This document shows, piece after piece, positions 4,144 to 20,746 of a stretch of DNA of 64,000 nucleotides. The translations under genes were made by a program, and so were the position numbers. Every line of letters begins with the position of its first letter. Within the stretch, counting starts at the first letter, position 1. Source of the stretch: a virus. The notes below the pieces were generated by a model, which searched no databases, was not told the origin of the DNA, and saw only the letters and a list, made by a program, of their open reading frames with translations. The stretch lies in IMG/VR virus record IMGVR_UViG_3300048834_000455, positions 1 through 64,000 of that record. One strand, written 5' to 3'.

Positions 4144-4145
4144 CT

Positions 4146-5970: not shown

Positions 5971-6071
5971 CGGTCTCGACTCCAGCAGATCCTCTCACCC
6001 TGACCTCCGCGGGCGCTAAGGCTTCGCCGAGACCATAGACGCCCGGGGCTACCCGGGAGAAGCGAGCGTTC

Positions 6072-6281
6072 ATGGGCTACTCGTTCTCTCACCCCAATCG
6101 CGGCCGCGTGCAAGAGCGCCGCAAGACGCGTAGCAAGTGCTCGCTTTTTCGCCGCAAGATCGTTTACGCGAACCCCGACCTCGCCGAAGCCGCTGCCGCC
6201 GAGATGGCCGCGATCTACCAGCAGGAGTTTCGCGCCTACCCCTGTGACCGCTGCCGATGCTGGCACGTGGGCCGACCATGA
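6072..6281 (+). CDS. Small YxCxxCxxWH zinc-finger protein
   Basis: RAYPCDRCRCWHVG motif. Confidence 0.6.
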   Translation: MGYSFSHPNRGRVQERRKTRSKCSLFRRKIVYANPDLAEAAAAEMAAIYQQEFRAYPCDRCRCWHVGRP

Positions 6282-6293
6282 AAGGAGACACCA

Positions 6294-6389
6294 ATGACCG
6301 CACTTGACCAAGCCTGGATCAACCTGGGCTTCTCGCTCTCGCTACTCTTCGCGGCCCTCGCCATCTTCTGGCGCACGGCAAAGCCCTGA
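6294..6389 (+). CDS. 31-aa membrane peptide (not in the ORF track)
   Basis: Strong AAAGGAG RBS; MTALDQAWINLGFSLSLLFAALAIFWRTAKP. Confidence 0.55.
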   Translation: MTALDQAWINLGFSLSLLFAALAIFWRTAKP

Positions 6390-8643
6390 TCCACCTGACG
6401 GCCCTAACCGTCCACTCAGTGGGAACGATGCCCGCAACGACAGCACGCCGGTGTGCACAATCCCACAGGTGCCAAAGAGTCGCGACCTTGGCGGCCAGAG
6501 TCGGAAGCCTGTTGGCCCAGGCCCTGACGTGGTAAAGGTCGCCCTCTGGTCGGTACTGCGGTCCGAGCCAGGCTGACAGCTCCGTAAGGGCTTCGGCGCC
6601 GTCGTCGGAAATCGCCAAGGCCAGGCGCTCCGGAGGCTGACCGTTCACGGGGGTGATGGGAGGTAGCAGTCGGCGGATGGTGTCGCGATAGTCGGCCATC
6701 AGGCTTTCAGGTATGGGCTTGGCGCTACGCACGTCGCGATAGCCAGCACGAGGCAGGGCGAACACCCAGAAAAAGCGCTCCAGTAGCCCGCGCCCCGAGA
6801 ACAGTTGGTTCATGAGGACGCCTCGAAGGTGTACGGGCTGGCTCATGACGAGCATGGCCAACGAGGGTCGCTCGGAGAAGTAGGAGCCTCCCGAAATGGT
6901 GTCCTTGGCCAGAAACTCACCCGAGAACGCGGACATGTAGACCGTTGCCACCTCAGCACGCTGTGAATACTTGCCGGCCATTCCCTCGAAGGGGCCACCC
7001 TCCGCGGAGAGCAGACCGATTGAACCCTGCTCGGCCAGCAGGCTGGCCAGTTTCTCCGGGGTCACGTCCTGGCAAGTGAGGCGCTTGGGTCGGAGAGCGG
7101 CTAGTGCGTTGAGGCGTCGGATGTGGTCGGCCAACTCGGCCCGAAGGTCGTCTTCGCCCTTGCTGGCCCTCTTGAGCAGCGCCGTCCGTCTGCTCTCGAG
7201 CAGTTGGCGTTCGGCCTCCTGCTCGGCGAGCTCGTCGCGGTAAGCCTCTCTGGCTTCAGCTTCGTGGGCGTACAGGGGGGAAGCAAGGTGCGCGATGTCG
7301 GCGCTCTTTCGCTCGGCGCTGTCGGCCCCCACCCCAGCGGCCACGGCGAGATTCTCAAGGCGCTGGCCAATCTTGACATAGTACTGCCCGTGGGTCGCCG
7401 TAGAAATCACACAGGTTGCGATGGCCTGGGGGTTGTCTCGGGGCGTCTGGTTGCACTCGCTGACGGCGTCGGTTACGGCTTCCAGTGACTCCGGCAAGCA
7501 CCCGGTCGGAGGCTCAGGGGTCTCCCAGGCGTCAAGGGGAAGGATCTCCGGCCAATCAAACTCGGTCTCAGGATCCTGGGACAATTGGGACGGAAAGGAA
7601 TCAATCGGCTCGGCATCCGGGTGAGAGTGCCGGGTCCCGTTACCGTTGGTGGGCACGGTGCTCTTGCCGTTCGCCTCCGTCTTGGGGCGAGGTGGGGTGT
7701 AGAACTCCCTGGTCAGCGCGATGGCGCCGCTCACAGTGCCTTCTCCGTAAAGCTCACCAGCCCGCGCGGGTCGGTCCCATTTGGGACGGTAGAGCCCGGA
7801 AGCCCGGAAGGCAGAGTCGACGCGGGCGGGGTCGCCCTGGAGATAAAAGGCAAGCTTCGAGCAAAGCCAGCCGTCCGCCGTGCTTTGGTCCCCATACCAC
7901 GCGCCCCAATCGCCACGGTCATAGAGGGCAATGAACTTGTCGCCATCCTTCGAGCGGCGGGCTACGTCCAACAGCTCTTGATCGGACAACGAGACGGGTT
8001 CACTGGCTTTGGGCTTGTTCGCTGACGCAGGCCTTCTTTTAGCGGCGGCTCGCTCGGTCCGATGGGCCAGGGCGCCCTCGTGGAGCCGGCGAACGTTCTC
8101 TCCGCTATCCGGCAACGTGCCCCCATGCGAGAGATGATGGGCATGCCCGGTTATCGTGAAGTAGCGGGAGCCTGGATATATCTCAGTGACGACCCCGGGT
8201 CGAGGATACCCATCGAACTTGCACCCCGGTGGCAGCGACAATCCAGGTGCATGGACAAACCCCTTAATGCCACGGCCAGAGGGGCTAACCTCCCAGTACG
8301 CTGGTATGTCGGCGATGATTTCAGCAACCTGCCCGTCGAGCACCCCATCCGACGAAATACAATCATCGAAATCGACACCGACAAAATCCGTTCCCCCAAG
8401 CATGAACCCAATGCCAGTGACTGAGTACTTAGCCATGGCTTTGACAGCCGCCCCAAAGCCGACCCCCGACGCGGGAAGGGTGGCGTTGACGGGCAGGCCG
8501 TTACGGGGGTCGACGGGGATTTTAGTAATCTTGCCGTCCCTGTCTTCCGTGTTCCACAGGATGAACGAGGGCACAGTCTTGAGGTCGTCAGGAATGTTTT
8601 CCAGTTGGAGGTCGGCCGCTCCGATCTTGATTGGCGCGTTCAT
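6319..8643 (-). CDS. AEP primase-polymerase (NrS-1-like) plus helix bundle and DUF3987/YfjI domain, apparently C-terminally truncated
   Basis: FVGVDFDDC, EVSPSGRGI, EIY..SRYFTITG; DQSTAD..LAFY..FRASGLYRPKWDR; DVTPEKL..SAEGG..GRGLLERF. The last ~20 aa read antisense through the small phage gene. Confidence 0.85.
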   Translation of the reverse strand: MNAPIKIGAADLQLENIPDDLKTVPSFILWNTEDRDGKITKIPVDPRNGLPVNATLPASGVGFGAAVKAMAKYSVTGIGFMLGGTDFVGVDFDDCISSDGVLDGQVAEIIADIPAYWEVSPSGRGIKGFVHAPGLSLPPGCKFDGYPRPGVVTEIYPGSRYFTITGHAHHLSHGGTLPDSGENVRRLHEGALAHRTERAAAKRRPASANKPKASEPVSLSDQELLDVARRSKDGDKFIALYDRGDWGAWYGDQSTADGWLCSKLAFYLQGDPARVDSAFRASGLYRPKWDRPARAGELYGEGTVSGAIALTREFYTPPRPKTEANGKSTVPTNGNGTRHSHPDAEPIDSFPSQLSQDPETEFDWPEILPLDAWETPEPPTGCLPESLEAVTDAVSECNQTPRDNPQAIATCVISTATHGQYYVKIGQRLENLAVAAGVGADSAERKSADIAHLASPLYAHEAEAREAYRDELAEQEAERQLLESRRTALLKRASKGEDDLRAELADHIRRLNALAALRPKRLTCQDVTPEKLASLLAEQGSIGLLSAEGGPFEGMAGKYSQRAEVATVYMSAFSGEFLAKDTISGGSYFSERPSLAMLVMSQPVHLRGVLMNQLFSGRGLLERFFWVFALPRAGYRDVRSAKPIPESLMADYRDTIRRLLPPITPVNGQPPERLALAISDDGAEALTELSAWLGPQYRPEGDLYHVRAWANRLPTLAAKVATLWHLWDCAHRRAVVAGIVPTEWTVRAVRWIRALPCARRWRGPRRVARARSPG

Positions 8644-9038
8644 GAGCGCACCTCTCCGAGATACTCGTCGAGAGCGGCCAAGGCGAGCGCGGAGAAGGCA
8701 TCGGCCTTGTCGCGGGACACGAAGGTGACCACGGGGTCATAGATCGGTTTGCCGTCCAGGGCCAGCTTGACCTCGCCACCGTACACACGGACTTTGCTCG
8801 GCGGATTGCACCAGCGCCTGCCGTCCTTCTCGAAGACCAGGCAACCGTGATAGATTACACCAGAAGCTGTCTCGATGGTGATAACGTCGGTGGCGGCGCC
8901 AGCGCCGGTTAGCGCTTTGTGTTCGCGGATGACGGCGACGGTCGGCCGAGGCGGTGCGCACATCGCCATGGCCTGGGCGGTCCTGGTGTTGGCGGCGGCC
9001 CCGGAGGGGGCCCCACCTTGGCGAGGCCCCGGGGTCAT
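8640..9038 (-). CDS. SpoVG-like nucleic-acid-binding protein
   Basis: GVIYHGCLVFEKDGRRWCNPPS..YDPVVTF..DAFSALAL pattern. Confidence 0.55.
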   Translation of the reverse strand: MTPGPRQGGAPSGAAANTRTAQAMAMCAPPRPTVAVIREHKALTGAGAATDVITIETASGVIYHGCLVFEKDGRRWCNPPSKVRVYGGEVKLALDGKPIYDPVVTFVSRDKADAFSALALAALDEYLGEVRS

Positions 9039-9286
9039 ACCGTCCCCCTTGCGATGAGCGCGAGGGCCTCGGCGCGGGAGCCAACCAGGTGCCGGATCGG
9101 CGGCTCGCACCAACGGATCACGGTCACGAGCCAGCCCTCTCTTGTGGGGCTGGCGGCGTGTAGCGGGTAGCGCTGGCGGTTGCGCTGATGGGGCGAGGGT
9201 GTTAAACTAACCACGGGTTCGTCATAGCCTTTTTGAGGGTTGCACTTTGCGGGTGCAGCCCTTTTTGTTTTGGGGCGGGGCGTCAT
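9035..9286 (-). CDS. Satellite hypothetical protein
   Basis: AGAAAGG RBS; ATGA coupling to the next gene; basic MTxRxK..AP start. Confidence 0.45.
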   Translation of the reverse strand: MTPRPKTKRAAPAKCNPQKGYDEPVVSLTPSPHQRNRQRYPLHAASPTREGWLVTVIRWCEPPIRHLVGSRAEALALIARGTV

Positions 9287-9384
9287 AATGTAGCCTTTCT
9301 CTGTGGGATTCCGGTCTCTATGCCGGCGGTCGTGGGGCAATGTCGAGCACGCCAGCGGGTGCCGGCGTGCGGGGTTGTCATGGG

Positions 9385-9654
9385 TTAGCGGGCGAGCGCC
9401 TGAACGGTGTGGCGTTCAAGCCACTTGGCAAAATCTGCGATGGCGATGCGCTTGGCGCCGCCAGCGGTAACCTGCGTGTATCGCAACTCTCGGCGATCGC
9501 AGGCCCGGCGGATGGTGTCGTCGCTCACCTCATATGCCTCAGCGAGCGTCGCAATCGATGCGTAGCGAGGAACCGCGCGGCCTTCCTCGAGGCGATCCAG
9601 CTTACGCATGATACGGTCCAGCATCTGTACGGGGTCCTGTTGGGTGTCTCTCAC
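9385..9654 (-). CDS. Excisionase-like HTH_17 protein
   Basis: YASIATLAEAYEVSDDTIRRAC..RIAIADFAKWL; GAGGAGG upstream of the GTG. Confidence 0.7.
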   Translation of the reverse strand: MRDTQQDPVQMLDRIMRKLDRLEEGRAVPRYASIATLAEAYEVSDDTIRRACDRRELRYTQVTAGGAKRIAIADFAKWLERHTVQALAR

Positions 9655-9877
9655 GGTGCTTATCAGTGCCTCCTCTTGCGGTATATGCAGAGGATAGGCT
9701 ATTCTGGCGGCATACATAAGGAGCAATCGTTTGCCACACTCTTTAGCTTCCAGCCTCGCCCGCCGTTCGGTCATCGGGAGTGGCGTAGTCACGGTGCCAG
9801 CCCTGGGGGCTGGGGTGCCTTGGACGGACCAGCCTGATCGAAAATTTAAGCACCAACGCTTTGACAGCGTGTCCAAA

Positions 9878-10747
9878 ATGGCTTTCCCGCTCTATGTCGG
9901 AAATCGACCCTTCGTCCCGGGATACGTGCACTGGACCGCCAATCGGCTGCCCCATCCCTGTCGGTTTGACCTTGGAGAATTTCTCGATAGGCTCGAGCGA
10001 TTCAACCTGGCCGGACTTGACCTCGACGAAGACGACCCGGACCTGCGCGGGGACCTGGGGACGCTTAATTTTGCAGAAACCTATGGACCACTTGGGCGGA
10101 TTTTGGTGACCGCCGACCAGTTCGCGGCAGTAGAAGACTTCGTTCCAAGCGAGCATCTCCAAGGTGATTTCCAGCGGCAGGCCCTGCGCAAATGGCTCGA
10201 TCCGAAGTACAGATTCGTCAGCAGCATGCCGTGGGAGGGGCCATTCTTTGAGCCTCGGAGAGACTGGGAACTAGAGTTAGCGGCGGTATCCTCGACCATC
10301 CTGCTATGGCGGCTGTGGGAAGACACTTCGGTTGACTTTGAGCGTCTCTTCGAGGACGTGCGAGCCCTTGACGAATATCCGGCCGACTTTGTTCTGCGCG
10401 CGGAGTCCTTGGGGGATGATCCTGAGGTTGTCGCGGCTAGCCGTCTTTTCAACCGTTTCGTGACTTCTGAAGACTATGATTCCGCCGAGATCCCCCAAGG
10501 AGACTGGCTTCCAAGCGAGCGCTCAAGGTTTTGGCGGGGTATCCTCTTTGGATTGATCGCCCGGCAGATCGATCAATTCCTTGAAGACCAAGTCTCCGCC
10601 AAGCTTCAGACTTCGCGAAGCCGCGACAGAAGCGCCCTCTCCTTTGTTGCGCCTAAGTCCTTCGCTGGCATCATCTGGATGTCGTTTCTGACGCGCAAAC
10701 CCTCGCCGTTACTGGGTGGCCATAAACGCGGTTTGTGGCCAATTTAA
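9878..10747 (+). CDS. Integrase-associated regulator-like protein, probably lacking its C-terminal Zn finger
   Basis: FAETYGPLG and PKSFAGIIW motifs parallel those of 18523..19578, but the ORF ends before the CxxC. Confidence 0.5.
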   Translation: MAFPLYVGNRPFVPGYVHWTANRLPHPCRFDLGEFLDRLERFNLAGLDLDEDDPDLRGDLGTLNFAETYGPLGRILVTADQFAAVEDFVPSEHLQGDFQRQALRKWLDPKYRFVSSMPWEGPFFEPRRDWELELAAVSSTILLWRLWEDTSVDFERLFEDVRALDEYPADFVLRAESLGDDPEVVAASRLFNRFVTSEDYDSAEIPQGDWLPSERSRFWRGILFGLIARQIDQFLEDQVSAKLQTSRSRDRSALSFVAPKSFAGIIWMSFLTRKPSPLLGGHKRGLWPI

Positions 10748-10796
10748 CTTCCTTCAACTTTGACGCCTCGGAAAGACGAGGAGAAAAGAGCGCACC

Positions 10797-11075
10797 ATGA
10801 GCCCTATCACCACCGAGTTAGACATTCACGCCGCAACCGACAGAGCGAAGGTCGAGGCCGGCTACCACGACGGCAAGCTCGACGCCGCCCTCGTGTTCAA
10901 GGCCAACGACGACACTGACGTGGTCGTGGGGGTTCGCCGCAAGATGCCGGCCGTGCAGGGCCAAGCCTGGGCCGGGTTCCTCGGGAACATCGGAGGCGCC
11001 GTGCAGGACGGCAAGCTCGACCTCACCGACGTGGCCAAGGTGGCCATGGGTAGCGACCTGGGAAAGCTCTTCTAG
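10797..11075 (+). CDS. Hypothetical late protein, with possible -1 frameshift extension to 11485
   Basis: GAGGAG RBS; internal DGKLD repeat; G GGA AAG at 11060-11066. Confidence 0.65.
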   Translation: MSPITTELDIHAATDRAKVEAGYHDGKLDAALVFKANDDTDVVVGVRRKMPAVQGQAWAGFLGNIGGAVQDGKLDLTDVAKVAMGSDLGKLF

Positions 11076-11489
11076 GCGAGATCGCGTCTCAGACCCTGGA
11101 GGCCGTCCTCGTTCCCGTTCTCGACAAGCTCCTTCCCGACCCTCCGCCCAAGCCCGGCAACCCCTTCGCCTCCCAGGTGCAGGACGAGACGGCGAGGCTG
11201 CAGGGCAGGGGCGACGGCAGCGAGAGGCCTGCAAACGAGGGCGACCTCTCGCCTGACCACGGCGAGCGGAGAGACCTCGCGCCCATCGTGGTGCCCGCCG
11301 CTCACGACGAGGGCGGGGACGCTGCCACCGAGACCACCGAGCTAGAGGCGGCACTCGACGCGACACCGGCCGCACGGTTCGAGCTTGAGACGCACCGGGG
11401 GATCGTAGGAAGCGAGGGCGAGTTTGCGCCGTTCCGCGGACTCGAAGACCTGCCAGCACCTGCGGTCGACCCCTGGCCGGACTAGTGCT

Positions 11490-11537
11490 GGCGTGGTAGG
11501 ATGGTGGCAACAGGTTCGACTCCTACCTGACTCGCCA
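11490..11537 (+). other. tRNA 3'-end remnant (T-loop, acceptor strand, CCA)
   Basis: AGG TTCGACT CCTAC CTGACTC G CCA has correct T-arm/acceptor spacing; no D or anticodon arm. Confidence 0.5.
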
Positions 11538-11566
11538 CTAAACGCAAGGGCTTCGGCCCATAGAAT

Positions 11567-11606
11567 GCAAAAAAGCCCCCGCCCTAACCGGCGGGGGCTT
11601 TTTTGC
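11567..11606. terminator. Bidirectional intrinsic terminator
   Basis: GCAAAAAAGCCCCCGCC-ctaacc-GGCGGGGGCTTTTTTGC between convergent operons. Confidence 0.92.
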
Positions 11607-11610
11607 GTCT

Positions 11611-12177
11611 CTAGGTGGTCTCAACCCACTCGGGCACTCCGTGCGGATAGATGGGGACGATAGCGGGCGATTTCGTGCGAGTCACTACCAAGCCGCCACC
11701 CATGCTCTCGATGTCGTCGGACATGGCGTCCATCCTGCGGTAGATGCCGTACTCCTCGCGAGTGGACTCAGCCTTCTCGACGTGCCACCCGTGGGGATTG
11801 TCGATCTTGCCGTCAGGGGCTCCCGCGACAATGGTGGGCCGCAGGAACTCGGCGTAGGTTTCGGGGACGAGAGCACCATCGCCGCGCCCGTCCAGCTTGT
11901 CGTAGCCGTGGGGCTCGCCGAGGAATTTGATTCGCTTCCAGCCCTCGGGCGCGTGAGCGTCAGTGGCCAGGGGTGCAGGGTGGGCGCACAACTCATAGTC
12001 GCCCACCAAGGCAACGCCCGAGTCAATCACGACTCCTGTCGTGCCGTTGATGTATCCAAGGGTTTTGGCCGGGGTCTCGAAAGCCGTCCAGTCCTCCAGG
12101 CGGGCACTGACTCCCGTGCCCAAGATGCGGGCGAGGATGGTCAGTTTCTGGCGGTGGAAATCTTTACGGGTGCTCAT
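11611..12177 (-). CDS. Hypothetical protein
   Basis: AGAGGGT RBS; phage-like codon use; ends at the terminator. Confidence 0.65.
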   Translation of the reverse strand: MSTRKDFHRQKLTILARILGTGVSARLEDWTAFETPAKTLGYINGTTGVVIDSGVALVGDYELCAHPAPLATDAHAPEGWKRIKFLGEPHGYDKLDGRGDGALVPETYAEFLRPTIVAGAPDGKIDNPHGWHVEKAESTREEYGIYRRMDAMSDDIESMGGGLVVTRTKSPAIVPIYPHGVPEWVETT

Positions 12178-12408
12178 TTAGGCCACCCTCTTTCGGCTGA
12201 CTTCGAGCAGTGTTTTCGGGGCGGCGTAGCGGGTCTTCACGTTGACGCTGTCGGCGCCGTACCACTGCTGGCGGCCCGCGCCGTCCACGGTCAGCACTAG
12301 GCCCTCTTGCTCGGCGACCACCCAGACGTGGGCGACGGTGCTAGGACCTGACTTGACCGGGCTGAATACGTGGGCGGTGGCTCTTGCGATTACTTGGGGG
12401 TTTCTCAT
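12178..12408 (-). CDS. Hypothetical protein
   Basis: AAAGGAGAA RBS behind a consensus promoter. Confidence 0.65.
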   Translation of the reverse strand: MRNPQVIARATAHVFSPVKSGPSTVAHVWVVAEQEGLVLTVDGAGRQQWYGADSVNVKTRYAAPKTLLEVSRKRVA

Positions 12409-12454
12409 CTTCGTTCTCCTTTGTTGTTGGCCGTTTGCGCTCGGCCTTGATACT

Positions 12455-12483
12455 GTTATATCACCGCGTTAACCCGGTGTCAA
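12455..12483 (-). promoter_or_regulatory. Sigma70 promoter with palindromic operator, copy 1
   Basis: TTGACA-ccgggttaacgcggtga(17)-TATAAC; contains CACCG-N8-CGGTG. Confidence 0.85.
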
Positions 12484-12842
12484 GCATATCTGTTTGCGAG
12501 TTTCTCTAGCTCTCGCTCCCACTGCTCCCGCCCGGCGACGCGAGAGGCCGCCTGGAGCCGCTCTTTGAGGCTCGGCGGCACTTTCACGGCCCACGCCACC
12601 CGCGCAACCCCGTCGCCGTTACGCTGCCACTCGCACCGGGTGCAGGTGCAGTCGGTGGGATGGCCGGACCCGGTGAGGCGAGAGATCTTTTCGTCGAGGG
12701 CTGTCAGGCGCTTGGTCAGCTTTTCGCGCTCTTTGCGGGCCAGCCGTGCCTCGGCGCTCTGGTCCGCTTCTGGGTGCTCGGGGATGGCCGCCAGCGCCTG
12801 GGCGGTCTCTCGTCGCTGCTGCTGGGTTTCGCGGAGGGTCAT
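12480..12842 (-). CDS. Coiled-coil/Zn protein with RHH-like C-terminus
   Basis: HPTDCTCTRC and WAVKVPPSLKERLQAA motifs. Confidence 0.55.
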   Translation of the reverse strand: MTLRETQQQRRETAQALAAIPEHPEADQSAEARLARKEREKLTKRLTALDEKISRLTGSGHPTDCTCTRCEWQRNGDGVARVAWAVKVPPSLKERLQAASRVAGREQWERELEKLANRYA

Positions 12843-13270
12843 AGCTGCTGCAGGGCCTCTCTGGCGCCGGGCGTCATGTAGTCAACACGGCGCTCTTTGG
12901 CGCTGGCCACAACGACGATCTGCCTGTTGGGCTCGATGTCGCGGCGGTAGATACCGAGCCCGCCGACGAAATCCAGCTCGCTCTGGGTGACGTAGCGGAC
13001 CTGCTGGCGCTCCACCTCGACCATGGCGGCTTCTCGCGCTTCATCGTCTGCTAGTTTGGCCAGGCGGTAGGTCGGCTCCACGCCCATCCTGACTGCCGCC
13101 TCCACGAAAGTCTCGCCGTCGAGTTTGCGGCCTATCCGTTCGACTGCGCGGAATCGGTCTTCGCTGTCGGGGTACTCCTCGAATCTCCAGAGGTCCCAGT
13201 CGTAGCCGCGACTGTCGCCAGGAGTGACGTCGTAGAATGCGTGATTCTCGTTGATTTTGCGTACTGCCAT
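12839..13270 (-). CDS. Hypothetical protein
   Basis: ATGA coupling; start refined to MAVRKIN. Confidence 0.55.
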   Translation of the reverse strand: MAVRKINENHAFYDVTPGDSRGYDWDLWRFEEYPDSEDRFRAVERIGRKLDGETFVEAAVRMGVEPTYRLAKLADDEAREAAMVEVERQQVRYVTQSELDFVGGLGIYRRDIEPNRQIVVVASAKERRVDYMTPGAREALQQL

Positions 13271-13316
13271 GATGAGAACTTCTTTCTGCGCGGATTGGCC
13301 CCCGCGCGGGCTGTGT

Positions 13317-13550
13317 CTAGAACCCCTCGTATTCCTCGAGGGCACATTTGGCGGCCAAGTCGGGCCGGCTCGCCAAGCACTCGGGGCAGACGTCATAGGG
13401 GTGAGGGTCGTTGCCAATGGTGTAGTGGCTCCAGCCAGCCTCGATGGCCGCGCTGTCGGCCTCCGCGTCGTCGGCCTTCGCCAGGTCCCGGCTCTCGGTG
13501 GTGCAACCTGGCGTGTCGCACGCCAGCCAGTGGAGGGAGCGGTCGGACAT
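13317..13550 (-). CDS. Small CxxxxC/CxxC Zn-binding protein
   Basis: LACDTPGC..AIEAGW..DVCPECL; TAATG coupling. Confidence 0.6.
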   Translation of the reverse strand: MSDRSLHWLACDTPGCTTESRDLAKADDAEADSAAIEAGWSHYTIGNDPHPYDVCPECLASRPDLAAKCALEEYEGF

Positions 13551-13825
13551 TAGACTCGAGCGCAAGCCGCGTCAAAGGCTTCGTTGAGAAGGCGACCAAT
13601 CTGATCTTTGGTTTCATCGTAAGCCTTGCAGGCCTCGTAACTGTCGCCCTCGCTAGGCTCGATCTCGATCTTGGTGTCGAGATAGCGATCGGCCACCTCG
13701 ACTGTGACTTCGGCGCCCTCATAGAAGGTGCCGACGATCTCTTCAGCGGTCTCGGCGTACAGGTCGGCTGGAACTCCGTCTAGGCCCTCGGTGCTGGTGG
13801 TGACGATAATTTTGGTGATGTTCAT
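13550..13825 (-). CDS. Small acidic hypothetical protein
   Basis: AAAGGAGAA RBS; first gene after a consensus promoter; D/E-rich. Confidence 0.7.
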   Translation of the reverse strand: MNITKIIVTTSTEGLDGVPADLYAETAEEIVGTFYEGAEVTVEVADRYLDTKIEIEPSEGDSYEACKAYDETKDQIGRLLNEAFDAACARV

Positions 13826-13872
13826 CTTGCGTTTCTCCTTTGCGTTTCGGGGTTTGCGCTCCCCGTGCTATA

Positions 13873-13901
13873 GTTATATCACCGCGTTAACTCGGTGTCA
13901 A
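13873..13901 (-). promoter_or_regulatory. Sigma70 promoter with palindromic operator, copy 2
   Basis: TTGACA-ccgagttaacgcggtga-TATAAC; 28/29 identical to copy 1. Confidence 0.85.
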
Positions 13902-13910
13902 CACCTGCGA

Positions 13911-14025
13911 GAAATAAAAGTGGCCGTCCCGATTTGCGCAAACAAAGGGCGGCCAACAAAGGAGCCGGGATTCACGCCCGGACGGGCTTTCGCTCCGCTC
14001 TCCGGGGAAGCTCGCCCCGAGGAGG
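13911..14025 (-). ncRNA. Candidate structured small RNA of about 115 nt
   Basis: Promoter TTGCCC-17-(TGG)TACGCT at 14059-14031, several hairpins, and a terminator TGGCCGCCC...GGGACGGCCA-CTTTTATTT. Confidence 0.5.
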
Positions 14026-14064
14026 GCTCTAGCGTACCACGGCGTGGCGGGGTGGGCAAGCGGG

Positions 14065-14244
14065 CTAGGCCTCCTCGTTGCGCTCGGCGGTCTCCTCAAC
14101 GTAGGCGTCCCAGTCGCGCTCGGTCCAGGAGGAACAGATGGCGCGAACTCTCTGCTCTACGGCCTGGGCCTGCTCTAGATCGCCCTTGGCTTCAAGTCTC
14201 TCGACCTGCCGAGCCAGCTTGTACACGGTATCAAAAGCCGTCAT
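14065..14244 (-). CDS. 59-aa hypothetical protein (not in the ORF track)
   Basis: GAAGGAGGAG RBS; MTAFDTVYKLARQVERLEAKGD... Confidence 0.6.
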   Translation of the reverse strand: MTAFDTVYKLARQVERLEAKGDLEQAQAVEQRVRAICSSWTERDWDAYVEETAERNEEA

Positions 14245-14677
14245 TGCTCTCCTCCTTCTGCTCGGCCTCTAGCCTAGCGGTCGCCGCCTCGTAAGGCAAA
14301 TTCTCGCGCAGGCAGTACAGCCCCGCCGCCAATCCCACCACCGCAAGCTCCAGCGTCTCCTGCGCGGTCCCCTCGGCGGTCACCCAGCGGCAGGTCGACC
14401 AGGTGGGGTGGTCGGTCGGGTAGATGCTCAGCGTCGCGTGGTCGTTCGTCTCATGTGCGGCCTTGATGCCGTCGACATCGCTCTCGACGTTCACCTGCTC
14501 GGCGATGTCGCGGAGCTGCCACAGGAAGGCGATGGCGGCCTTCTCCTCCTGCGCGATCTCGGGGTACATGTGGCGTTGCGTCCGGCAGCGGTCCGAGCGC
14601 TCTTGGACGCCGTCACTGGCGAGGTCGAGCAGGGTATCGAGCAGGTCTTTGAGGGTGGGGGCGGGGTCGGTGGTCAT
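14231..14677 (-). CDS. Hypothetical protein
   Basis: GGAGGT RBS; abuts dndB. Confidence 0.6.
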   Translation of the reverse strand: MTTDPAPTLKDLLDTLLDLASDGVQERSDRCRTQRHMYPEIAQEEKAAIAFLWQLRDIAEQVNVESDVDGIKAAHETNDHATLSIYPTDHPTWSTCRWVTAEGTAQETLELAVVGLAAGLYCLRENLPYEAATARLEAEQKEESNDGF

Positions 14678-15745
14678 CTAGCTCACCTCCAGCCCAAGGA
14701 CACCCTTGAGGTAGTTGGCCGTAGCCGTGACGTGAGCCGAGGTCTTCTGGACCACCCCACCGGTCAGCGCCTTGCCCTCCCAATGCGGGGCCGAGCGTAG
14801 CCAGTTGACGTCCTCGAGAGGCTGGAGTCGCCCCTCCCAGTCGCTGTGCTCCGAGACCAGAGCTTCGCCGGCCACTCCGAGAGCTTGCAGAGCCACGGCG
14901 TGAGCGTGAACGGTGTCTTGCCGAAGCTCGGCGCTCTGGACTTGGCCGAGGCGAGCGCGCGACCAATCGGGGATGCAGTTGCCGACCTCTTCCCAGAAGC
15001 GGTGAGCCAGAGCCGCCTGCTGCTTCGTTGGCGAACCCTTGCGGCCAATCCCGAGCAGAGCCTGCGTGGCCTGGTGGATCGCGCCGATGGTGAACAGCTT
15101 GCGACTGGCCTTGCCAATGCTGGGCTTCTCCATCTCGGTCAGCCCCCGGAAGGTCGGATTCCTGGTGGCTAGATCGCGGGCGAGGTCAGCCATGGCGTCG
15201 CGGTGATCATACAGCACACCGAGACTCTTGGCGGGCTTGGCGCCGTGGAAGTTCAGGTCCGAGAAGAGCTGCTGCGAACGCTTCAGGCCAGCGTCTATGA
15301 ACAGCACCACGGACAGGCTCTCGCTCGCCAACTCGGGCCGCTCCTTGATGGCGCGGATGATGGCCGCCCTTCGGTGCTGGCCGTCGTTGACGAGGATGGT
15401 GGCCGACATTGGCACGTGGAGAGTCCCAATGTTGTGGTTGCCCTCGCTGGCCTCGAACCGGACCTCGGCGGCGATGCTCGCGATGATGGGCGGGAGCACG
15501 TAGTCGTTGGCGTTGTCCACGAGATAGCGAGCAATCCCAGGCACTCGCGAGGGGTTGAGCACTCGTTGCGCCCGGAGCTCGGGGCTCAGCTCTTCCTCGT
15601 CAATCACGAGGATTCGGGGGATTAGCTGGAGCGGGCACATGATCGAGAAGTAGGAGCGACCGGCCTGGATGCCGCGCAGAGCTGCGAACGAGTAGGCCAT
15701 GGTTTCCACGCGGGGCGGGGTGGGTTTGGTTTGAGTCTTAGACAT
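14678..15745 (-). CDS. dndB: DndB-family DGQHR-domain protein
   Basis: ALRGIQAGR.YF..MCPL, PELRAQRVLN, NDGQHRRAAI, GLKRSQQLFSDLN, LYDHRD and SRKLFT motifs; AGAAAGGA RBS. Confidence 0.9.
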   Translation of the reverse strand: MSKTQTKPTPPRVETMAYSFAALRGIQAGRSYFSIMCPLQLIPRILVIDEEELSPELRAQRVLNPSRVPGIARYLVDNANDYVLPPIIASIAAEVRFEASEGNHNIGTLHVPMSATILVNDGQHRRAAIIRAIKERPELASESLSVVLFIDAGLKRSQQLFSDLNFHGAKPAKSLGVLYDHRDAMADLARDLATRNPTFRGLTEMEKPSIGKASRKLFTIGAIHQATQALLGIGRKGSPTKQQAALAHRFWEEVGNCIPDWSRARLGQVQSAELRQDTVHAHAVALQALGVAGEALVSEHSDWEGRLQPLEDVNWLRSAPHWEGKALTGGVVQKTSAHVTATANYLKGVLGLEVS

Positions 15746-15770
15746 GTGGTCCTTTCTATATAGAGGGGGG

Positions 15771-16118
15771 TCAAACTTCGTCTTCGGCCAGCGCCACAGG
15801 GTCCCAGCCAAGGTGATACTCGCCGAACCACTGCCCCACGTGCTCCACCCCATCCACACTCACCGTGAACTCGGTGTCGCCAGGGATCGCGAGGTCAGCG
15901 CAGATGGCCGCGTGAGCCGCCGTGGTGACCGCCTCGAGCTGGTCGGCGTTCAAATCGGCAAGGCGCAATGTGTCGAAGGTGACGGCGGCCTCGGTGGTCT
16001 GTGCGAAGGTTAGCTTCAGCCGGGTGTCGTCGGCCTCGCGGCACCCGCAGTCTCGCGCGTCGGCGAGGCAGTCTGGGCACTGGTGCTTCTTCAGGGGCTC
16101 TTGGTAGTCGCAGCGCAT
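15771..16118 (-). CDS. Hypothetical Cys-rich protein
   Basis: TGATG coupling; CPDC motif. Confidence 0.55.
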   Translation of the reverse strand: MRCDYQEPLKKHQCPDCLADARDCGCREADDTRLKLTFAQTTEAAVTFDTLRLADLNADQLEAVTTAAHAAICADLAIPGDTEFTVSVDGVEHVGQWFGEYHLGWDPVALAEDEV

Positions 16119-16384
16119 CAGATGTCACCCCAGCGGCTCAGCTCGTCGCCCACCTGTGACAGCTCGAGCCCGCGCAGGGAGAAGGAGCGGCTCACGAGGC
16201 AGCGGTTGCCGTTCTCGTGCTCGCAGTAGAGCCCGCGCCCGTTCGTCGCGGTGCGGTAGGTGGTGCGCGTGGAGACCGGCTCGCGGGTCACGGGGTGGCT
16301 GTAGGTGTGCACCCAGGTCCACTCCCAGCCGTGGGCGCCGTTGGGGCGGAGGTCGGAGATTCCAGTGGCGATGGTGGCGGTCAT
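16118..16384 (-). CDS. Hypothetical protein
   Basis: GAAAGGA RBS. Confidence 0.55.
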   Translation of the reverse strand: MTATIATGISDLRPNGAHGWEWTWVHTYSHPVTREPVSTRTTYRTATNGRGLYCEHENGNRCLVSRSFSLRGLELSQVGDELSRWGDI

Positions 16385-16433
16385 TTGCAGGGTCCTTTCT
16401 GCCCGGTTTGGGCGCCGGGCCGCCGTAGTGAGG

Positions 16434-16694
16434 TTAAGCGCCGAACCAAGTCTTGCGCCAGGCTGCATTGGCGGCTTCCTGTGCGCGGTCGGCCTGGTGC
16501 TCGGCGAGGATGGCGCGAGCCTCGTCCTCGGTGATGCCGAAGCGCTTGGCGCGGCTGGCGACCAGGGTGGGGCAAAGGGCGAGCTTGGCCGCCTCGAAGG
16601 CCTCGGAGTAGCTGAAGGCCGGGGCGGAAGCGACTTCGACGAAGCCGCCGTTCCCCAAGGTGTAGAAGCGTTCGGTGGTGGCGGTGGGGTTCAT
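16434..16694 (-). CDS. Hypothetical protein
   Basis: GAAGGAG RBS. Confidence 0.6.
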   Translation of the reverse strand: MNPTATTERFYTLGNGGFVEVASAPAFSYSEAFEAAKLALCPTLVASRAKRFGITEDEARAILAEHQADRAQEAANAAWRKTWFGA

Positions 16695-16741
16695 AGCGGG
16701 CTCCTTCTTGCCGGATTTGGGCTCCGGCTGGCCCTTAAAAT

Positions 16742-17017
16742 TTAGCGGTAGCTGTTAGCGATTTGGTTGAGCAGGTAGCGGTCGACGAGGCGCTGCAACG
16801 CCTCAACGGTGCGAGGGTTAAGGTTCGCCAACTCGACCCAAGCAAGCTGGCTGCACTCCGTAGCCCAGCCAAGGAAGCGCTCGGCGTGAGCGGCATGTAG
16901 AGGCTTGGGGAAGGTGGTCTCTACCCATCCATCCACCCAGCCGCCGTGAGACTTGGTGTTGACGCAGACGACGGCGCCCATAACTGTGATGGTGAAAGAG
17001 GTTTGAAAAACAGGCAC
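16742..17017 (-). CDS. Hypothetical protein
   Basis: AAGGAGG RBS before the GTG. Confidence 0.55.
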   Translation of the reverse strand: MPVFQTSFTITVMGAVVCVNTKSHGGWVDGWVETTFPKPLHAAHAERFLGWATECSQLAWVELANLNPRTVEALQRLVDRYLLNQIANSYR

Positions 17018-17234
17018 GGTGTGCCCTCCTTGGGTGGTGTAAGCGGCGAACCGCTTCTCTATGCTCGTCCTCGTAGGCGTCGAGCCTGCCCAGCGTTGCT
17101 AGCGCCTTGCGTGGCCCTTTGAAGCGGTTGCCCTCCGCTGTTCCCCTCGCGACTTACGGGGGAGCCCGTCCGGGCTAGCCCCTCCCGCGCGAACGGGGAG
17201 TCCCCGCCACCCGGCGGGTATGTTCTGCGAAACT

Positions 17235-17426
17235 TTAGAGGCTAGTGTGGAGGCCGGTGGCAGAGGTGAAGACTTCGCGGAGACTCTCTGCGTAAATGCC
17301 GGTGCTCTCGTTCACGACCCGGGCGTTGGCTCCGCGCATCGCGTAGAAGGCGACATCGTAGAGGTCGGCCGGCGTCAGGGTGATGACCACGGCGCGGATG
17401 CCATCCTTCGCGAAACCGTTGACTTT
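17235..17426 (-). pseudogene. 3' half of a conserved phage protein, 5' end lost
   Basis: Frame reads NGFAKDGIRAVVITLTPADLYDVAF..GIYAESLREVFTSATGLHTSL*, with an in-frame TGA at 17427-29 and no RBS. Confidence 0.65.
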
Positions 17427-17570
17427 TCACTCTGCAAAAAGGTAGGAAGCAGAAAGCCCGTAAAACCAGGGTTTCTCTGCAGGCACTGGCCCGGGCTGGC
17501 CCTTTTTGCAGTTCGTACTTTTCGCTCGCTGCAAGAAGGCAGGTCGCGAAAAACCTGACTAACCCTAGCC

Positions 17571-17828
17571 TCAGGATACACCCGCACCCTTTTTACCCTT
17601 TTTACAGACCGATCCTAGAGAGTGGGGGAGGGTGGAAGGGAAAAGCTCGGCTGGTAAAGTCTCCAGGTCTGGTTGCGACACCAGGGCCAAAGCTCTGCCT
17701 AGCGCATCAGATCCGTAGTAATGACAGATACCACCGGCGTGTGGTATTCTGTCTGCGGTTGTCGTAGAGGTCAATCGCGAGCGCTTTCCCGTGCCACCGG
17801 GGGCGCTCTGTTTCGTTCTAGAGGTCAT
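17571..17828 (-). CDS. Satellite hypothetical protein
   Basis: AGGAGA RBS; MTSRTKQSAP start resembles 9035..9286. Confidence 0.45.
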   Translation of the reverse strand: MTSRTKQSAPGGTGKRSRLTSTTTADRIPHAGGICHYYGSDALGRALALVSQPDLETLPAELFPSTLPHSLGSVCKKGKKGAGVS

Positions 17829-17848
17829 CTCGTCTCCTAACCTGGGCC

Positions 17849-18217
17849 CTACAGGCTCCAGTTAATGTTCTCGGCTCTCGCCGAAGCTTTCTTGTTGGTG
17901 GCGGGGTCAATACGGTGTTTGTGTAGGTAAGCGAGCACGTCGCTTACGAGCACCCTTACGCGGTGACCCTCGGCCTCTTGGATGCGCGGCAGCTCGCCGT
18001 CCCGGACCAGCTTTGCCGCCGTCTTCTCGTGGGCTCCGATCATCTTGCCAACGGCTTTTAGGCCGATAGCAACGTCATAGTCGGGGTGAGCAACAGCGGG
18101 GGCGGTCCCGCACCAAGCTGCAATCTGCTGGCCCTGCAACTGGAGCGCTGAGGCCAAAAGCCTAACCTCGTCTGTCAGGCACGCCACCATCGCCTTTAGG
18201 TCGGCGACATCAGACAT
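17849..18217 (-). CDS. Excisionase-like HTH_17 protein
   Basis: IGLKAVGKMIGAHEKTAAKLVRDGELP..RVRVLVSDVLAYL. Confidence 0.7.
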   Translation of the reverse strand: MSDVADLKAMVACLTDEVRLLASALQLQGQQIAAWCGTAPAVAHPDYDVAIGLKAVGKMIGAHEKTAAKLVRDGELPRIQEAEGHRVRVLVSDVLAYLHKHRIDPATNKKASARAENINWSL

Positions 18218-18434
18218 GGGCAGATTCGCTCTCGAGGGGCCAGCCGTCCGGAGCAAACAATTCCTCTACTGGGCACCCGAGGGTCTGCGCCACCCTTGCA
18301 CGGACCCTGGGTCCGGCTGGAGTTTTTCCTGCGCGCAAGCGGTATAGGTTGCTTGGATGAGTACCAACGGCGCGGGAAAACTCTGGCATCCCGAGCCCCG
18401 CTGCCTCCATGGCTACCTGGATCATGGTCGTCAT
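18210..18434 (-). CDS. XRE/Cro-like HTH protein
   Basis: GLGMPEFSRAVGTHPSNLYRLRAGK..VAQTLGCPVEELF; AAGGAGG RBS. Confidence 0.8.
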   Translation of the reverse strand: MTTMIQVAMEAAGLGMPEFSRAVGTHPSNLYRLRAGKTPAGPRVRARVAQTLGCPVEELFAPDGWPLESESAHV

Positions 18435-18522
18435 TTTCTCGACCTCCTTGTCAGTGATAGGCCCAGTGTAGTATCTTCTTGTAACTAGACAAAGTTAAAA
18501 CTGGTTACAGGGGTTACGAAAA

Positions 18523-19578
18523 ATGCACCGCGGCGACATCACTTTTCACTGGCACCGAGACCCTATCGGGTATGAGGTAAAGCCTGATATCAGGTATGAG
18601 AAGAACCCGGATCGAAGCGATAGAGAGGTGAGGGAGGGGCTGGCGATATGGGAGAAGAGCGCCATAGGGGCGGCGGAGACAACTTGGCCGCTCACGCCCA
18701 ATCCGGTGACAGGTGAATGCGAAAATGACGGCTCTGTCCTTTTGGTTAGCCAACTCGCGGAAGTAGAACTCACCAAGGCCGGCCTTGAGAAGTGGTGCAA
18801 TCGGCACGGCCTGCTATTCACCGGGGAAGAGCGGTTGCTGCGAGACGCAAAGGGCTTCCTTACCCCTGGCTGCCCCAACAACAGGGTTGTCAACCTGGTC
18901 GAAAGCTACAAGGATCCAATCCGACAAGCGAAGGCATTCATGGCGTTCCTGTCAATGATGCAGACAGGAATCGACCCAGGCTATATAAGCCCGCACCCAC
19001 TCGCTAAGGCACTCGAGGCTCACGGGGTGCCCACCAACCGCTTCCCCGGGTTAGGATATCTCAACATTTTCGAAGCCAGCCCCGAGTGGGAACCCATTCC
19101 GCCAGCCTGGCCGGGGCAGGAATTCAAACCTGATGACGTCCCGCTGATGGCGCAAAGGATCCTTTGGTCCTTTCTGTTCAAGGTGCTCAAAGAAAAGGTC
19201 AACCTTGTCTCTGTTGTGGAGCAAACGGGGATGGCTGAAAGGATGGCGCTTAGGCCTGTCGACTTCGAGGCAGCCATTTGGTTGCAGGCTTCGTTCCATC
19301 TTCACGAAGGGAAACACGCCAGGGTGTGCCCCATCTGCAACAAAGTCTATGAGGTGAGCGCTGAGACCCCGAAGGGTCCCACGTCTCAGCGCTATTGTGG
19401 AGGCAGGTCCAGCAAGACTTGCAAAGTTCGGGCCAACGAGCGCCGCCGGGATAAGGCTTTTGAGCTATTCAAGGCTGGCGCGAATGTCCAGGAGGTTCTA
19501 GAGCAAGTGAACGGGATGGGGTTCGGAGTATCTAAGCGGGATACAATCGAGGGCTGGAGGGCGAAGGTCAATGGCTAG
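18523..19578 (+). CDS. Integrase-associated regulator with C-terminal CGNR-like Zn finger
   Basis: WCNRHGLL; RVCPICNKVY..RYCGGRSSKTCKVRANERR. Confidence 0.65.
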   Translation: MHRGDITFHWHRDPIGYEVKPDIRYEKNPDRSDREVREGLAIWEKSAIGAAETTWPLTPNPVTGECENDGSVLLVSQLAEVELTKAGLEKWCNRHGLLFTGEERLLRDAKGFLTPGCPNNRVVNLVESYKDPIRQAKAFMAFLSMMQTGIDPGYISPHPLAKALEAHGVPTNRFPGLGYLNIFEASPEWEPIPPAWPGQEFKPDDVPLMAQRILWSFLFKVLKEKVNLVSVVEQTGMAERMALRPVDFEAAIWLQASFHLHEGKHARVCPICNKVYEVSAETPKGPTSQRYCGGRSSKTCKVRANERRRDKAFELFKAGANVQEVLEQVNGMGFGVSKRDTIEGWRAKVNG

Positions 19579-20245
19579 AGCGGACGGTAAAGACCGTGGA
19601 CTATTCCAGAAGCCAGCCAACTCCGGCGTGTGGTGGATTCGATTTGCCGACCACCGCAAGCGCGAGCGGCGCTTTAAGGTCGGCAAAAAGAGCGATGCCC
19701 AGAAAGCCTATGCCCACAAGAAGCAGATCGTCCAGAAGATCAAGCTGGGGACCCTCCCCGAAACAGCTCTGGACGGCGAGGACATTCCGACCCTGAAGGA
19801 ATACCTCGAATCGATCACCCCAGAGCTAGAGCAGAAAAAGAGCTGGCGAGACGATCAGCGCTTCCTTAAACGGTGGGTAGCGATGCTCGGAAGCTACGGG
19901 ATCGACGAAATCCAGGCCAAGCATGCGGTGAAACGACGAACAGCTCAGCTCGCCAAGGGTAAAAAGCCCGCGACCGTAAACCGAGAGACGGCGTTCCTCA
20001 AGGCTGCCTTGACCAGAGCGGTACGCGATGGGGTTCTCGAGAAGAATCCCCTAGCCGGCTTCAAGATGCTGCCCGAGAACAACGAGCACGACCTTTATCT
20101 CACCGAGCCCCAGGAGGTGCGCCTGGCCGCCGTCATGGCGCCAGAGGACTTCGAGGTGGTAGCGCCATTTAGTTATAGTTTATGGCAGACATCTAGTCAA
20201 TATGGTTGGCAAATGTTTTTGGCAGACATATACTCAAGGCTATGA
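19571..20245 (+). pseudogene. Tyrosine integrase N-terminal half (arm- and core-binding domains only)
   Basis: WWIRFAD..RRFKVG, PATVNRETAFLKAAL..NPL, LYLT motifs. Homology stops at EDFEVVA (20164), before the catalytic TGLR. Confidence 0.85.
20172..20234. promoter_or_regulatory. Divergent sigma70 promoter pair with direct-repeat operators
   Basis: Minus strand TTGACT-17-TATAAC (20200-20172); plus strand TTGGCA-17-TATACT (20206-20234); TGGCAGACAT at 20183 and 20220. Confidence 0.8.
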
Positions 20246-20442
20246 CAGACGAGGAAAGACGCAAGATGGGGCGGCCCCGAGAGTACGACGGGAATGAGCC
20301 TGGAGCGCCGCGACTTACGATCCGATTTCGGCCGGACGTGCTGGCTTGGCTGCGCGCTCAACCGGGAGGACCCCGCCGCGCCATCGAGCGATGGGCCCTG
20401 GGCGAGATGGCTGCCGAGCGCAAAAAAGCCCCACCGAAGTGA
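20242..20442 (+). CDS. BrnA-like/RHH small DNA-binding protein, probably leaderless
   Basis: MGRPR..LTIRFRPDVLAWLRAQPGG; ATG 7 nt after the -10 box. Confidence 0.7.
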   Translation: MTDEERRKMGRPREYDGNEPGAPRLTIRFRPDVLAWLRAQPGGPRRAIERWALGEMAAERKKAPPK

Positions 20443-20475
20443 GGCTGGCTGGAGGCTCCGAGAGGCTTTCGCCCT

Positions 20476-20658: not shown

Positions 20659-20746
20659 AGGCACAGGATAGCAGGCGGGGCGAGGGCAATCGGTGACGGT
20701 TGTCACTGGGGCGGCTGGGTGTCACTCCTTGCCGCACGATTTGCAC

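Follow-up and report, generated by a model that had tools for sequence, protein, structure and literature searches.

We have analysed a window of 64 kb, i.e. the first 64,000 nucleotides of an 89,905-bp single virus record (IMGVR_UViG_3300048834_000455), in which two blocks of genes are built to the same plan. Block A runs from 6385 to about 10700 and block B from about 17400 to 20163. In each of them a leftward gene resembling the helix-turn-helix (HTH) family HTH_17 is divergent from a rightward open reading frame (ORF) for a putative regulator, as was noted in a preliminary description of this DNA. On balance we favour the view that each block is a non-autonomous remnant, and that the two derive from different small integrative elements of a single architectural class. 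The features of the two blocks are listed by position and strand, with lengths in amino acids (aa).

Block A
6319-8643, minus strand: truncated gene for a primase-polymerase/DUF3987 helicase of 774 aa (DUF3987 E 3.5e-59; NrS1-1_pol-like_HBD E 2e-19)
8640-9113, minus strand: ORF of 157 aa between the small basic ORF and the primase gene, with no Pfam or PHROG match and only weak matches in the fetched genomic loci (best E 1.8e-4)
9035-9286, minus strand: basic ORF of 83 aa downstream of the HTH_17 gene; the exact protein is recorded as a called gene on one contig, with no family match (Pfam, PHROG)
9385-9876, minus strand: HTH_17 (AlpA/excisionase-like) gene (Pfam HTH_17 E 9.3e-6, 26.3 bits, just under the cut-off of 27; PHROG 66 E 5.9e-5)
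9878-10747, plus strand: truncated member of a Zn-ribbon/HTH regulator family, 289 aa as called and likewise in the database call (family profile built without B, E 7e-7)

Block B
17571-17828, minus strand: basic ORF of 85 aa downstream of the HTH_17 gene; exact protein on two contigs, with no family match (Pfam, PHROG)
17849-18256, minus strand: HTH_17 (AlpA/excisionase-like) gene, called as 122 aa from 18217 (Pfam HTH_17 E 1.3e-5, 25.8 bits, just under the cut-off of 27; PHROG 66 E 3.8e-6); exact protein on two contigs
18210-18434, minus strand: XRE/Cro-type HTH gene of 74 aa, the first of the leftward unit (HTH_31 5.2e-5, HTH_26 1.8e-4), with AAGGAGG before the ATG; on two contigs
18435-18522, no strand: divergent intergenic switch region, with a promoter-like site on the plus strand at 18448-18477 (9/12 matches)
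18523-19578, plus strand: complete member of the Zn-ribbon/HTH regulator family, 351 aa (profile positions 3-302 of 319, E 3.5e-45, B left out of the profile)
19571-20245, plus strand: N-terminal half of a tyrosine integrase, 224 aa, with Int_N only and no Phage_integrase domain; 8-nt overlap with the regulator gene

PHROG 66 is described as 'excisionase and transcriptional regulator'. The HTH_17 gene of block A is probably shorter at its 5′ end than the ORF, with the Met codon at 9774 as the likely start.

The kinship of the two rightward ORFs is remote. Comparison of the A and B regulators by BLASTP was not significant (E 0.55), and a word-based homolog search with each returned only the queries themselves. 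With B as query, an exhaustive search by phmmer gave 73 proteins (E ≤ 0.001); the majority are 300-370 aa long and have a C-terminal core in common. A profile of 72 phmmer proteins matches the A regulator with E 6.4e-7. A hidden Markov model (HMM) built from 71 relatives with B left out matches A with a score of 25.7 bits (E 7e-7, profile positions 68-223 of 319) when the genome is searched as 1766 six-frame segments; the top score from 1000 shuffles of the A regulator was 6.5 bits. Comparison of A with the family by hhalign gave a probability of 89% and E 2.3e-6. The alignment of A extends from the FA..YG.L motif to the P..L..A.WLQFA motif, and the motif pairs on which a common family had originally been proposed (FAETYGPLG with WCNRHGLL and PKSFAGIIW with PVDFEAAIW) fall in aligned columns. 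Judged by these comparisons the two ORFs belong to one family. The likeness that had also been seen between the two small basic ORFs (MTxRxK..AP) falls short of significance (E 0.46), and the 15 bacterial loci described below contain no relatives of either.

In an alignment of 48 family sequences four Cys residues are invariant (C269, C272, C292 and C300 in B), and W253 and Q255 are nearly so. These four Cys and the C-terminal HTH are present in B but not in A. The A ORF is open from 9731, and the gene was taken as 9878-10747; its likeness to the family stops near 10690, at profile position 223 of 319, before the Cys residues and the HTH, in agreement with the earlier statement that it is cut before its Zn finger. 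No remnant of a zinc ribbon or HTH was found downstream. Because they are too divergent for BLASTP the two regulators come from two different sources, and the same divergence led us to reject the possibility that A and B are two pieces of one element.

Neither regulator has a match in Pfam or PHROG, and the members of the family are named 'hypothetical protein' in their sources. We call the family uncharacterised on the basis of Pfam, PHROGs, these source names and a non-exhaustive literature search. In a Pfam scan of 10 relatives one passes the HTH_23 cut-off and one that of DUF6076, all other matches lying below their cut-offs. DUF6076 is matched by three of the ten, P0037 alone (24.2 bits) being above the cut-off of 23.5. 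The Atlas structure neighbours of the B regulator include a CGNR zinc-finger cluster (TM 0.55/0.51), ABATE+zf-CGNR (0.38/0.54) and DUF6076 (0.42). Nothing usable was obtained from the Atlas for A, and a profile search of the PDB with the regulators gave HTH-level matches only. The ABATE/zf-CGNR and DUF6076 proteins share this structure-neighbour signal with B, which in common with A has no Pfam match itself, and the function of those families is likewise not known. These likenesses should be treated as leads only.

The left end of block A lies in its replication gene. Both the DUF3987 helicase domain and the primase-polymerase helix-bundle domain are present in the 774-aa ORF (Pfam). Residues 380-774 were searched against 5.8 billion proteins, with 13 matches. 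The four closest relatives are P0002 (901 aa), P0003 (887), P0004 (875) and P0005 (905), and P0002 is 87% identical over residues 380-774, i.e. the helicase half. In an alignment of these proteins (A1) the A primase-helicase tracks its relatives as far as VRWIR (residue 752), and continues with 22 unrelated, Arg-rich codons; the relatives run about 150 residues further. By tblastn, residues 3-746 of the 901 in P0002 map to 8646-6385 of the window and no further. About 155 C-terminal residues, a region present in all four close relatives, are missing from A, and no trace of this tail was found anywhere in the genome by tblastn with P0002 (every other match E ≥ 0.29). A MarR_2-like stretch of P0005 (residues 777-826) lies in the missing part. 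The DUF3987 match in A covers profile positions 1-351 of 364, and full-length relatives reach 352-354. Since the Pfam match of the full-length relatives ends in the same region of the profile, the break lies outside the domain. It is real, and is located at 6385, just past DUF3987. The cut in DUF3987 that had been reported is thus a cut in the gene, after a domain that is whole.

The right end of block B lies in an integrase gene, which is cut mid-gene as originally described. The 224-aa ORF aligns from its first residues with the complete integrase of a bacterial locus that carries the regulator family (L001), the closest to it that we found (tblastn E 3e-32), and the likeness stops at 20163, which is five residues short of TGLRRSE, the motif with the first catalytic Arg. 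The R..K..H-R-H/W..Y catalytic domain of a tyrosine recombinase is not present in the ORF. The left end of B is marked by a step in G+C content (GC) alone, which falls from 0.64-0.66 to about 0.55 near 17400; near 20200 GC climbs from 0.55-0.58 to 0.63-0.70. Double truncation had been claimed for both blocks, and because the left end of B is a GC step it is established for A only. At three of the junctions the earlier coordinates were accurate to within a few bases. The tetranucleotide distance of B from the genome reaches a z of about 1.8, and the block is compositionally foreign. The composition of A is that of the phage itself (z about 0), so that A is either old or derived from the same host background.

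We note that the best promoter-like site of the region (TTGGCA-17-TATACT, 10/12 matches; 20206-20442 with what follows) falls exactly at the right junction of B. The ORF of 66/78 aa after it has a weak BrnA-antitoxin-like match (E 0.0018) that is below the cut-off.

Neither block has att repeats or a complete integrase, as had been observed. No direct repeats flanking the blocks were found at a seed of 11; the integrase partner downstream of the A regulator is gone, leaving block A without any integrase, and the complete integrase and attP-like site nearby are the phage's own. The primase-replicase is found in A only, where it is C-terminally short, and is absent from B. No small terminase or capsid-morphogenesis match was found in Pfam or PHROG for any ORF of A or B. 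With this gene content neither block should be able to integrate, excise or replicate as an element. Every ORF of either block is open, uninterrupted by stops or frameshifts, and the two switch regions, also intact, have promoter-like sites.

The same module is found in bacterial genomes. A scan of genome contigs with the family gave two loci, in metagenome-assembled genomes (MAGs) of Candidatus Xenobia and Nitrobacter, and the family profile matched 8 of the 401 genomes sampled in one class and 10 of 301 in one phylum, i.e. about 2-3% of the genomes sampled from two distant bacterial groups. Four of the 18 genomes with a match (G407, G416, G423 and G531, the weakest) were left out, and fifteen places were taken from the other 14. 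A complete tyrosine integrase on the same strand lies directly 3′ of the family gene in 10 of the 15, with gaps of -228 to +308 nt; in L032 the two genes overlap by 4 nt. Of the other five, four lack an integrase and one has it on the opposite strand, at a distance of 788 nt. The first or second divergent ORF is of the HTH_17 type in 6 of the 8 loci tested (L001 and L002 were outside this test), XRE-type in one and without a match in one. A replicase follows, and its type varies from locus to locus: Prim-Pol with PriCT_1 (twice), DUF927, AAA_25, DnaB_C, DnaG-type, Toprim and DUF5906.

tRNA genes adjoin 6 of the 10 integrase-linked loci. Three elements could be delimited: L002 is 8.5 kb, with a 50-nt tRNA-derived repeat that is 96% identical; L037/L045 is about 14 kb, with an exact tRNA-derived repeat of 39 nt; and an element on contig 38 of G460 is about 14.2 kb, with an exact 16-nt repeat at tRNA-Thr(CGT). 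No repeats of at least 13 nt were found for L031, L032 and L033 within the fetched stretches. By gene content and setting the module appears to belong to small, tRNA-borne, satellite-sized elements, and since the three delimited elements are 8.5-14.2 kb in size and lie next to tRNA genes, satellite-sized parents for A and B are plausible. The satellite layout that had been recognised in the blocks therefore has counterparts in real integrative elements, with the coupling to integrases, the divergent HTH_17 genes and the sizes given above, and these elements are candidate satellites.

Two of the bacterial elements have further features. L002 (2975-11557, Nitrobacter MAG), bounded by its tRNA-Met repeat, has a second integrase fragment of 244 aa (3790-4524) beside the complete integrase, so that broken integrases also occur inside such bacterial elements. 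In L032 a 711-aa TIR/ThsB-like protein with TPR (2295-4430) is encoded in the leftward arm of the family-bearing element, and is possible defence cargo.

These data bear also on whether the blocks came from ordinary temperate phages by exchange between phages, rather than from satellite-like elements. Replicases of the Prim-pol/DUF3987 type occur in many true phages, and 272 phage records match P0002, including phi105. Two of the family-bearing elements carry a terminase, or capsid and tape-measure-like genes, and the Atlas neighbours of B include clusters labelled Uroviricota, which is a lead only. Yet three family queries gave zero matches by tblastn in 50,697 deposited phage genomes, and all three delimited elements are, at 8.5-14.2 kb, small for complete tailed phages. 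We consider a purely phage origin unlikely.

The parents of A and B would thus be elements in which the Zn-ribbon/HTH protein is co-transcribed with a tyrosine integrase, with an AlpA/Cox-like HTH_17 gene on the opposite side heading a replication operon. We assign both blocks to this class because they have the same regulator family and the same layout, with break points that are fixed against relatives. They may have entered the phage by recombination with co-resident elements, and would then have been trimmed in an accessory arm that tolerates cargo. Deletion would have taken the catalytic domain of the integrase from B, and the zinc ribbon and HTH of the regulator together with the C-terminal winged-helix part of the primase-helicase from A. 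The loss of a C-terminus at every outer end is what is expected from the geometry of a divergently transcribed element of 8-14 kb. Recombination remnants, or scars, are most likely what we see, and ordinary phage mosaicism is the default reading.

The remainder of the record encodes a phage that has its own versions of most of these functions. In addition to the genes below it includes tail-fibre-like genes and genes for a DnaB-type primase-helicase, an O-like initiator and a Sak4-like protein, and there is an ImmA-like gene in the window.

20882-20921, plus strand: 5′ fragment (positions 1-41) of tRNA-Thr(CGU), probable core of the phage's own attP (Rfam tRNA partial match, 18.7 bits, below the gathering score)
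20982-22178, minus strand: the phage's own complete tyrosine integrase (Phage_integrase E 1.2e-22 plus Int_N), which aligns over its full length with the L001 and L043 integrases
25481-26008, minus strand: the phage's own CI-like gene (HTH_3 5.9e-9, Phage_CI_repr 1.2e-4)
25975-26256, plus strand: the phage's own Cro-like gene (HTH_3 3.3e-14)
26363-26899, plus strand: the phage's own HTH_17 gene, 3′ of the Cro-like gene (HTH_17 9.4e-7, 29.4 bits)

The large terminase (TerL) of this phage is at most 33.3% identical to that of any of the 50,697 deposited phages, so that its kinship to known phages is distant. Because it has its own CI/Cro, integrase, initiator, DnaB-primase and terminase genes the record is that of a novel tailed phage, which is temperate and fully equipped with its own genes for lysogeny and replication. 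The record shows no terminal repeat, and ARAGORN found no tRNA gene in the window. In a phage that already has a CI/Cro switch, an HTH_17 gene, an integrase, an attP-like site, a DnaB-primase and an O-like initiator, the two blocks are supernumerary. Both lie between the genes on the lysis side (a YkuD-like gene is at 4754-5491) and the attP-like site, i.e. in an accessory arm, surrounded by small leftward ORFs, a DndB-like gene, a bidirectional terminator (11567-11606) and a low-GC cassette. A strongly deviant low-GC stretch (22000-26000, GC 0.51-0.54, tetranucleotide z up to 5.3) lies between the ImmA-like and CI-like genes. Its ORFs of 410, 226 and 167 aa have no Pfam match, and the first two no PHROG match either.

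The tRNA fragment matches the complete tRNA-Thr(CGT) of L044 at 38 of 40 bases. All three exact copies of the 9-mer GGTGTCCCC in the window flank it (20748-21114), as do six same-strand repeats of the GGTGTCCC(C) type that lie on both sides of it (20740-21115), and a promoter-like site (TTGACC-18-TATTTT) is just upstream. We take the segment 20740-21115 as the probable phage attP. Integration here would restore the tRNA with its 5′ half and promoter supplied by the phage. This is unusual, since in most attP sites it is the 3′ part of a tRNA that is present. In L033 and L037 the 3′ end of the integrase gene faces the 5′ end of the adjacent tRNA-Ser gene, and the phage integrase faces a 5′ tRNA fragment too; these integrases may form a clade that targets the 5′ halves of tRNA genes. 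The phage integrase is 0.8 kb to the right of block B, and the attP-like site 0.7 kb from it. We infer from the layout that B was not captured by a simple aberrant excision beside attP, since two small genes separate B from the attP core and the direction of the integrase half, toward the 5′ tRNA fragment, is not the one expected for a neighbour at the same tRNA.

The junctions of the blocks raise the question of whether A and B were joined artificially in the assembly of a metagenomic contig. For three of the four junctions there is one assembly only. Exact-sequence look-ups found the B regulator, XRE, HTH_17 and basic ORF on two contigs each, together with four phage proteins from 13550-16694, also on two contigs each. 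The B integrase half, the 66-aa ORF to its right, the 188-aa protein of 11611-12177 and the three block A proteins on record were found on one contig only; five other sequences, with guessed starts, had no exact record. Because the second contig shares eight identical proteins across 13550-19578, the left junction of B has been seen twice. A chimeric origin would moreover require two joins for each block, with a return to the same phage and with order and orientation correct, and there are no repeats at the junctions. We regard it as highly improbable.

Attempts to find the blocks elsewhere gave nothing. Megablast of 6000-21000 against the 50,697 phage records had no match, and scans of viral contigs with the primase, B regulator, DndB-like and YkuD-like proteins found no related loci. 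Nothing was confirmed with alignment A1 in metagenome and genome contigs, and the family alignment (A3) had no match in viral contigs. No exact copy of a 40-nt stretch of B was found in viral and metagenome contigs, a search from which records of this or a very near genome may be excluded. The intact parent satellites that were to be sought by such searches have thus not been found among phage records or viral, metagenome and genome contigs.

Block B could by now be part of the wiring of the phage. The promoter of its XRE/HTH_17 unit might drive or gate the leftward operon from 17017 to 11611, which includes the DndB-like gene, or its HTH_17 protein might serve as an excision factor for the phage integrase. 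The leftward genes of B are co-oriented with this operon and directly upstream of it, and the second contig carries the B genes and the operon together. HTH_17/PHROG 66 proteins are annotated as excisionases, and the attP-like site is close at hand. Against this, next to the phage's own Cro-like gene there is a further HTH_17 gene, and the operon has near-identical consensus promoters of its own at 12455-12483 and 13873-13901. The B integrase half is 40% identical to the phage integrase over the core-binding part only, so that shared arm sites are not indicated, and the GC steps mark B as foreign. Such a role for B seems to us improbable.

The operon has some features of its own. The two promoter-like sites (minus strand) are 29-nt copies identical at 28 of 29 positions, with consensus-like elements (TTGACA, 17 nt, TATAAC), and lie inside the operon; shuffles gave zero expected by chance. 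We considered a promoter motif common to the operon and the rest of the phage and rejected it, since these sites differ from the CGCGTGATGGGACC motif found elsewhere in the genome. The DndB-family gene (14678-15859, minus strand) is full length (E 2.5e-120), and no other dnd genes are nearby. A perfect inverted repeat of 17 bp at 11567-11606, bordered on both sides by runs of T and A, resembles a bidirectional terminator, and rightward late-side genes meet the leftward operon there.

The preliminary description had suggested that the blocks may be switches retained against satellites, or else neutral recombination scars, and a possibility related to the first is that they are kept as a protein-based defence against competing elements, either satellites or temperate phages with the same type of switch. 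The complete B regulator might then act as a heterotypic repressor of elements that share its operators (heterotypic immunity). The A regulator without its DNA-binding part and the helicase without its winged-helix part might be dominant-negative, poisoning their cognate oligomers, and the integrase half might block att sites by occupying them without catalysis. Phage-encoded systems aimed at satellites do exist (10.64898/2026.10.15.759431). The open ORFs, the intact switch regions with promoter-like sites, the full length of the B regulator against the family profile, and the presence in one phage of two independent remnants of one module class would all agree with such a function. However, retention of a central switch with loss of C-termini is the outcome of random trimming, no target element is known, and no recurrence was found in other phages, both the viral-contig scans (window proteins, alignment A3) and the three tblastn searches of 50,697 phage records being empty. 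That the switch is kept in both fragments is weak evidence for retention, as pieces of 2.7 and 4.3 kb from elements of 8-14 kb with a central switch would often include it. The open ORFs, the complete B regulator, the orientation of B and the composition of A are compatible with function, and are not evidence for it. We therefore find defence unlikely, and as far as the sequence goes the anti-satellite function originally suggested (decoy, repressor or antisense) is unsupported. Residual regulatory activity is possible, given that the ORFs are open and that B keeps a complete regulator, XRE and HTH_17 genes. Overall, the original observation is partly confirmed, and its interpretation partly supported.

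We return to the reading of A and B as remnants of small integrative elements, and note several points that weigh against it. An old neutral ORF of 2.3 kb, such as that of the A primase-helicase, would be expected to decay, and open ORFs fit recent capture and selection equally. The leftward unit of B, co-oriented with the 17017 to 11611 operon, could now drive or regulate it, making B more than a scar. Three of the four junctions depend on one assembly. No intact parent and no related phage were recovered, and we infer the direction and timing of events. The 14-kb elements carry terS-/TerL-like genes, or capsid/protease- and tape-measure-like genes plus a second integrase, and helper dependence of the parent class, of which size and gene content were read, would be putative.

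The layout of the module has parallels in known systems. In P2 (C-int | cox-B-A) and 186 (cI-int | apl ... A) a maintenance regulator is co-transcribed with the integrase, and the replication operon, on the divergent side, begins with a small HTH excisionase/repressor gene. The family module has the same layout, but there is no sequence relationship, and its regulator of about 320-370 aa has a 4-Cys ribbon and a C-terminal HTH_23-like motif. The 'b region' of lambdoid phages is non-essential and a sink for mosaic remnants. The position of blocks A and B is similar: they have the late/lysis genes on one side and attP on the other, and their neighbours are small accessory ORFs and cargo such as the DndB-like gene and the low-GC cassette.

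Satellites of the phage-inducible chromosomal island (PICI) and cfPICI types have an integrase, a regulation module with a homolog of AlpA, MerR or Stl, and a primase-replicase in conserved order with a divergent switch, according to de Sousa et al. 2023 (PMC10085698). The blocks have HTH_17 matches just under the cut-off, and PHROG 66 matches, that may mark an AlpA-type regulator, and the parent-class elements are similar to PICIs in this layout and in lying at tRNA genes with sizes of 8.5-14 kb, one having terS-/TerL-like and one capsid/protease-like genes. Unlike PICIs the blocks have no complete integrase, att sites, or packaging or capsid-remodelling genes, and the integrase-coupled regulator is of the Zn-ribbon/HTH family, without a Pfam or PHROG match here. 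The same authors describe an integrase, AlpA-like regulator and replicase alone as a 'Type C' set, which may represent other mobile elements (PMC10085698), and by this gene set the class of the parent elements as satellites would be ambiguous. Helper-embedded PICIs, as described by Tommasini, Mageeney and Williams 2023 (PMC10111431), are satellite-type DNA inside the helper (pro)phage, with gene traffic between satellite and helper. The blocks resemble them in lying inside a phage genome. In contrast, helper-embedded PICIs are intact, with their own integrase and att sites, and interrupt late genes (PMC10111431), whereas the blocks are truncated, have no att sites and are in the accessory arm.

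We conclude that the accessory arm of this novel 90-kb temperate phage, with its two separately derived and truncated lysogeny/replication modules, is a clean example of phage mosaicism. A useful by-product is the uncharacterised Zn-ribbon/HTH family, which is tightly coupled to tyrosine integrases in small tRNA-borne elements, where it is divergent from an HTH_17 gene and replicases of interchangeable type. The family protein is a candidate maintenance regulator for satellite-sized elements, and current satellite markers may class such elements only ambiguously. If the remnants were active against these elements, a protein-based route would be added to the known conflicts between phages and satellites, and if the blocks are indeed kept for defence, the 'broken' genes of mobile elements that lie in the accessory arms of phages would constitute a class of weapon against satellites or other phages.

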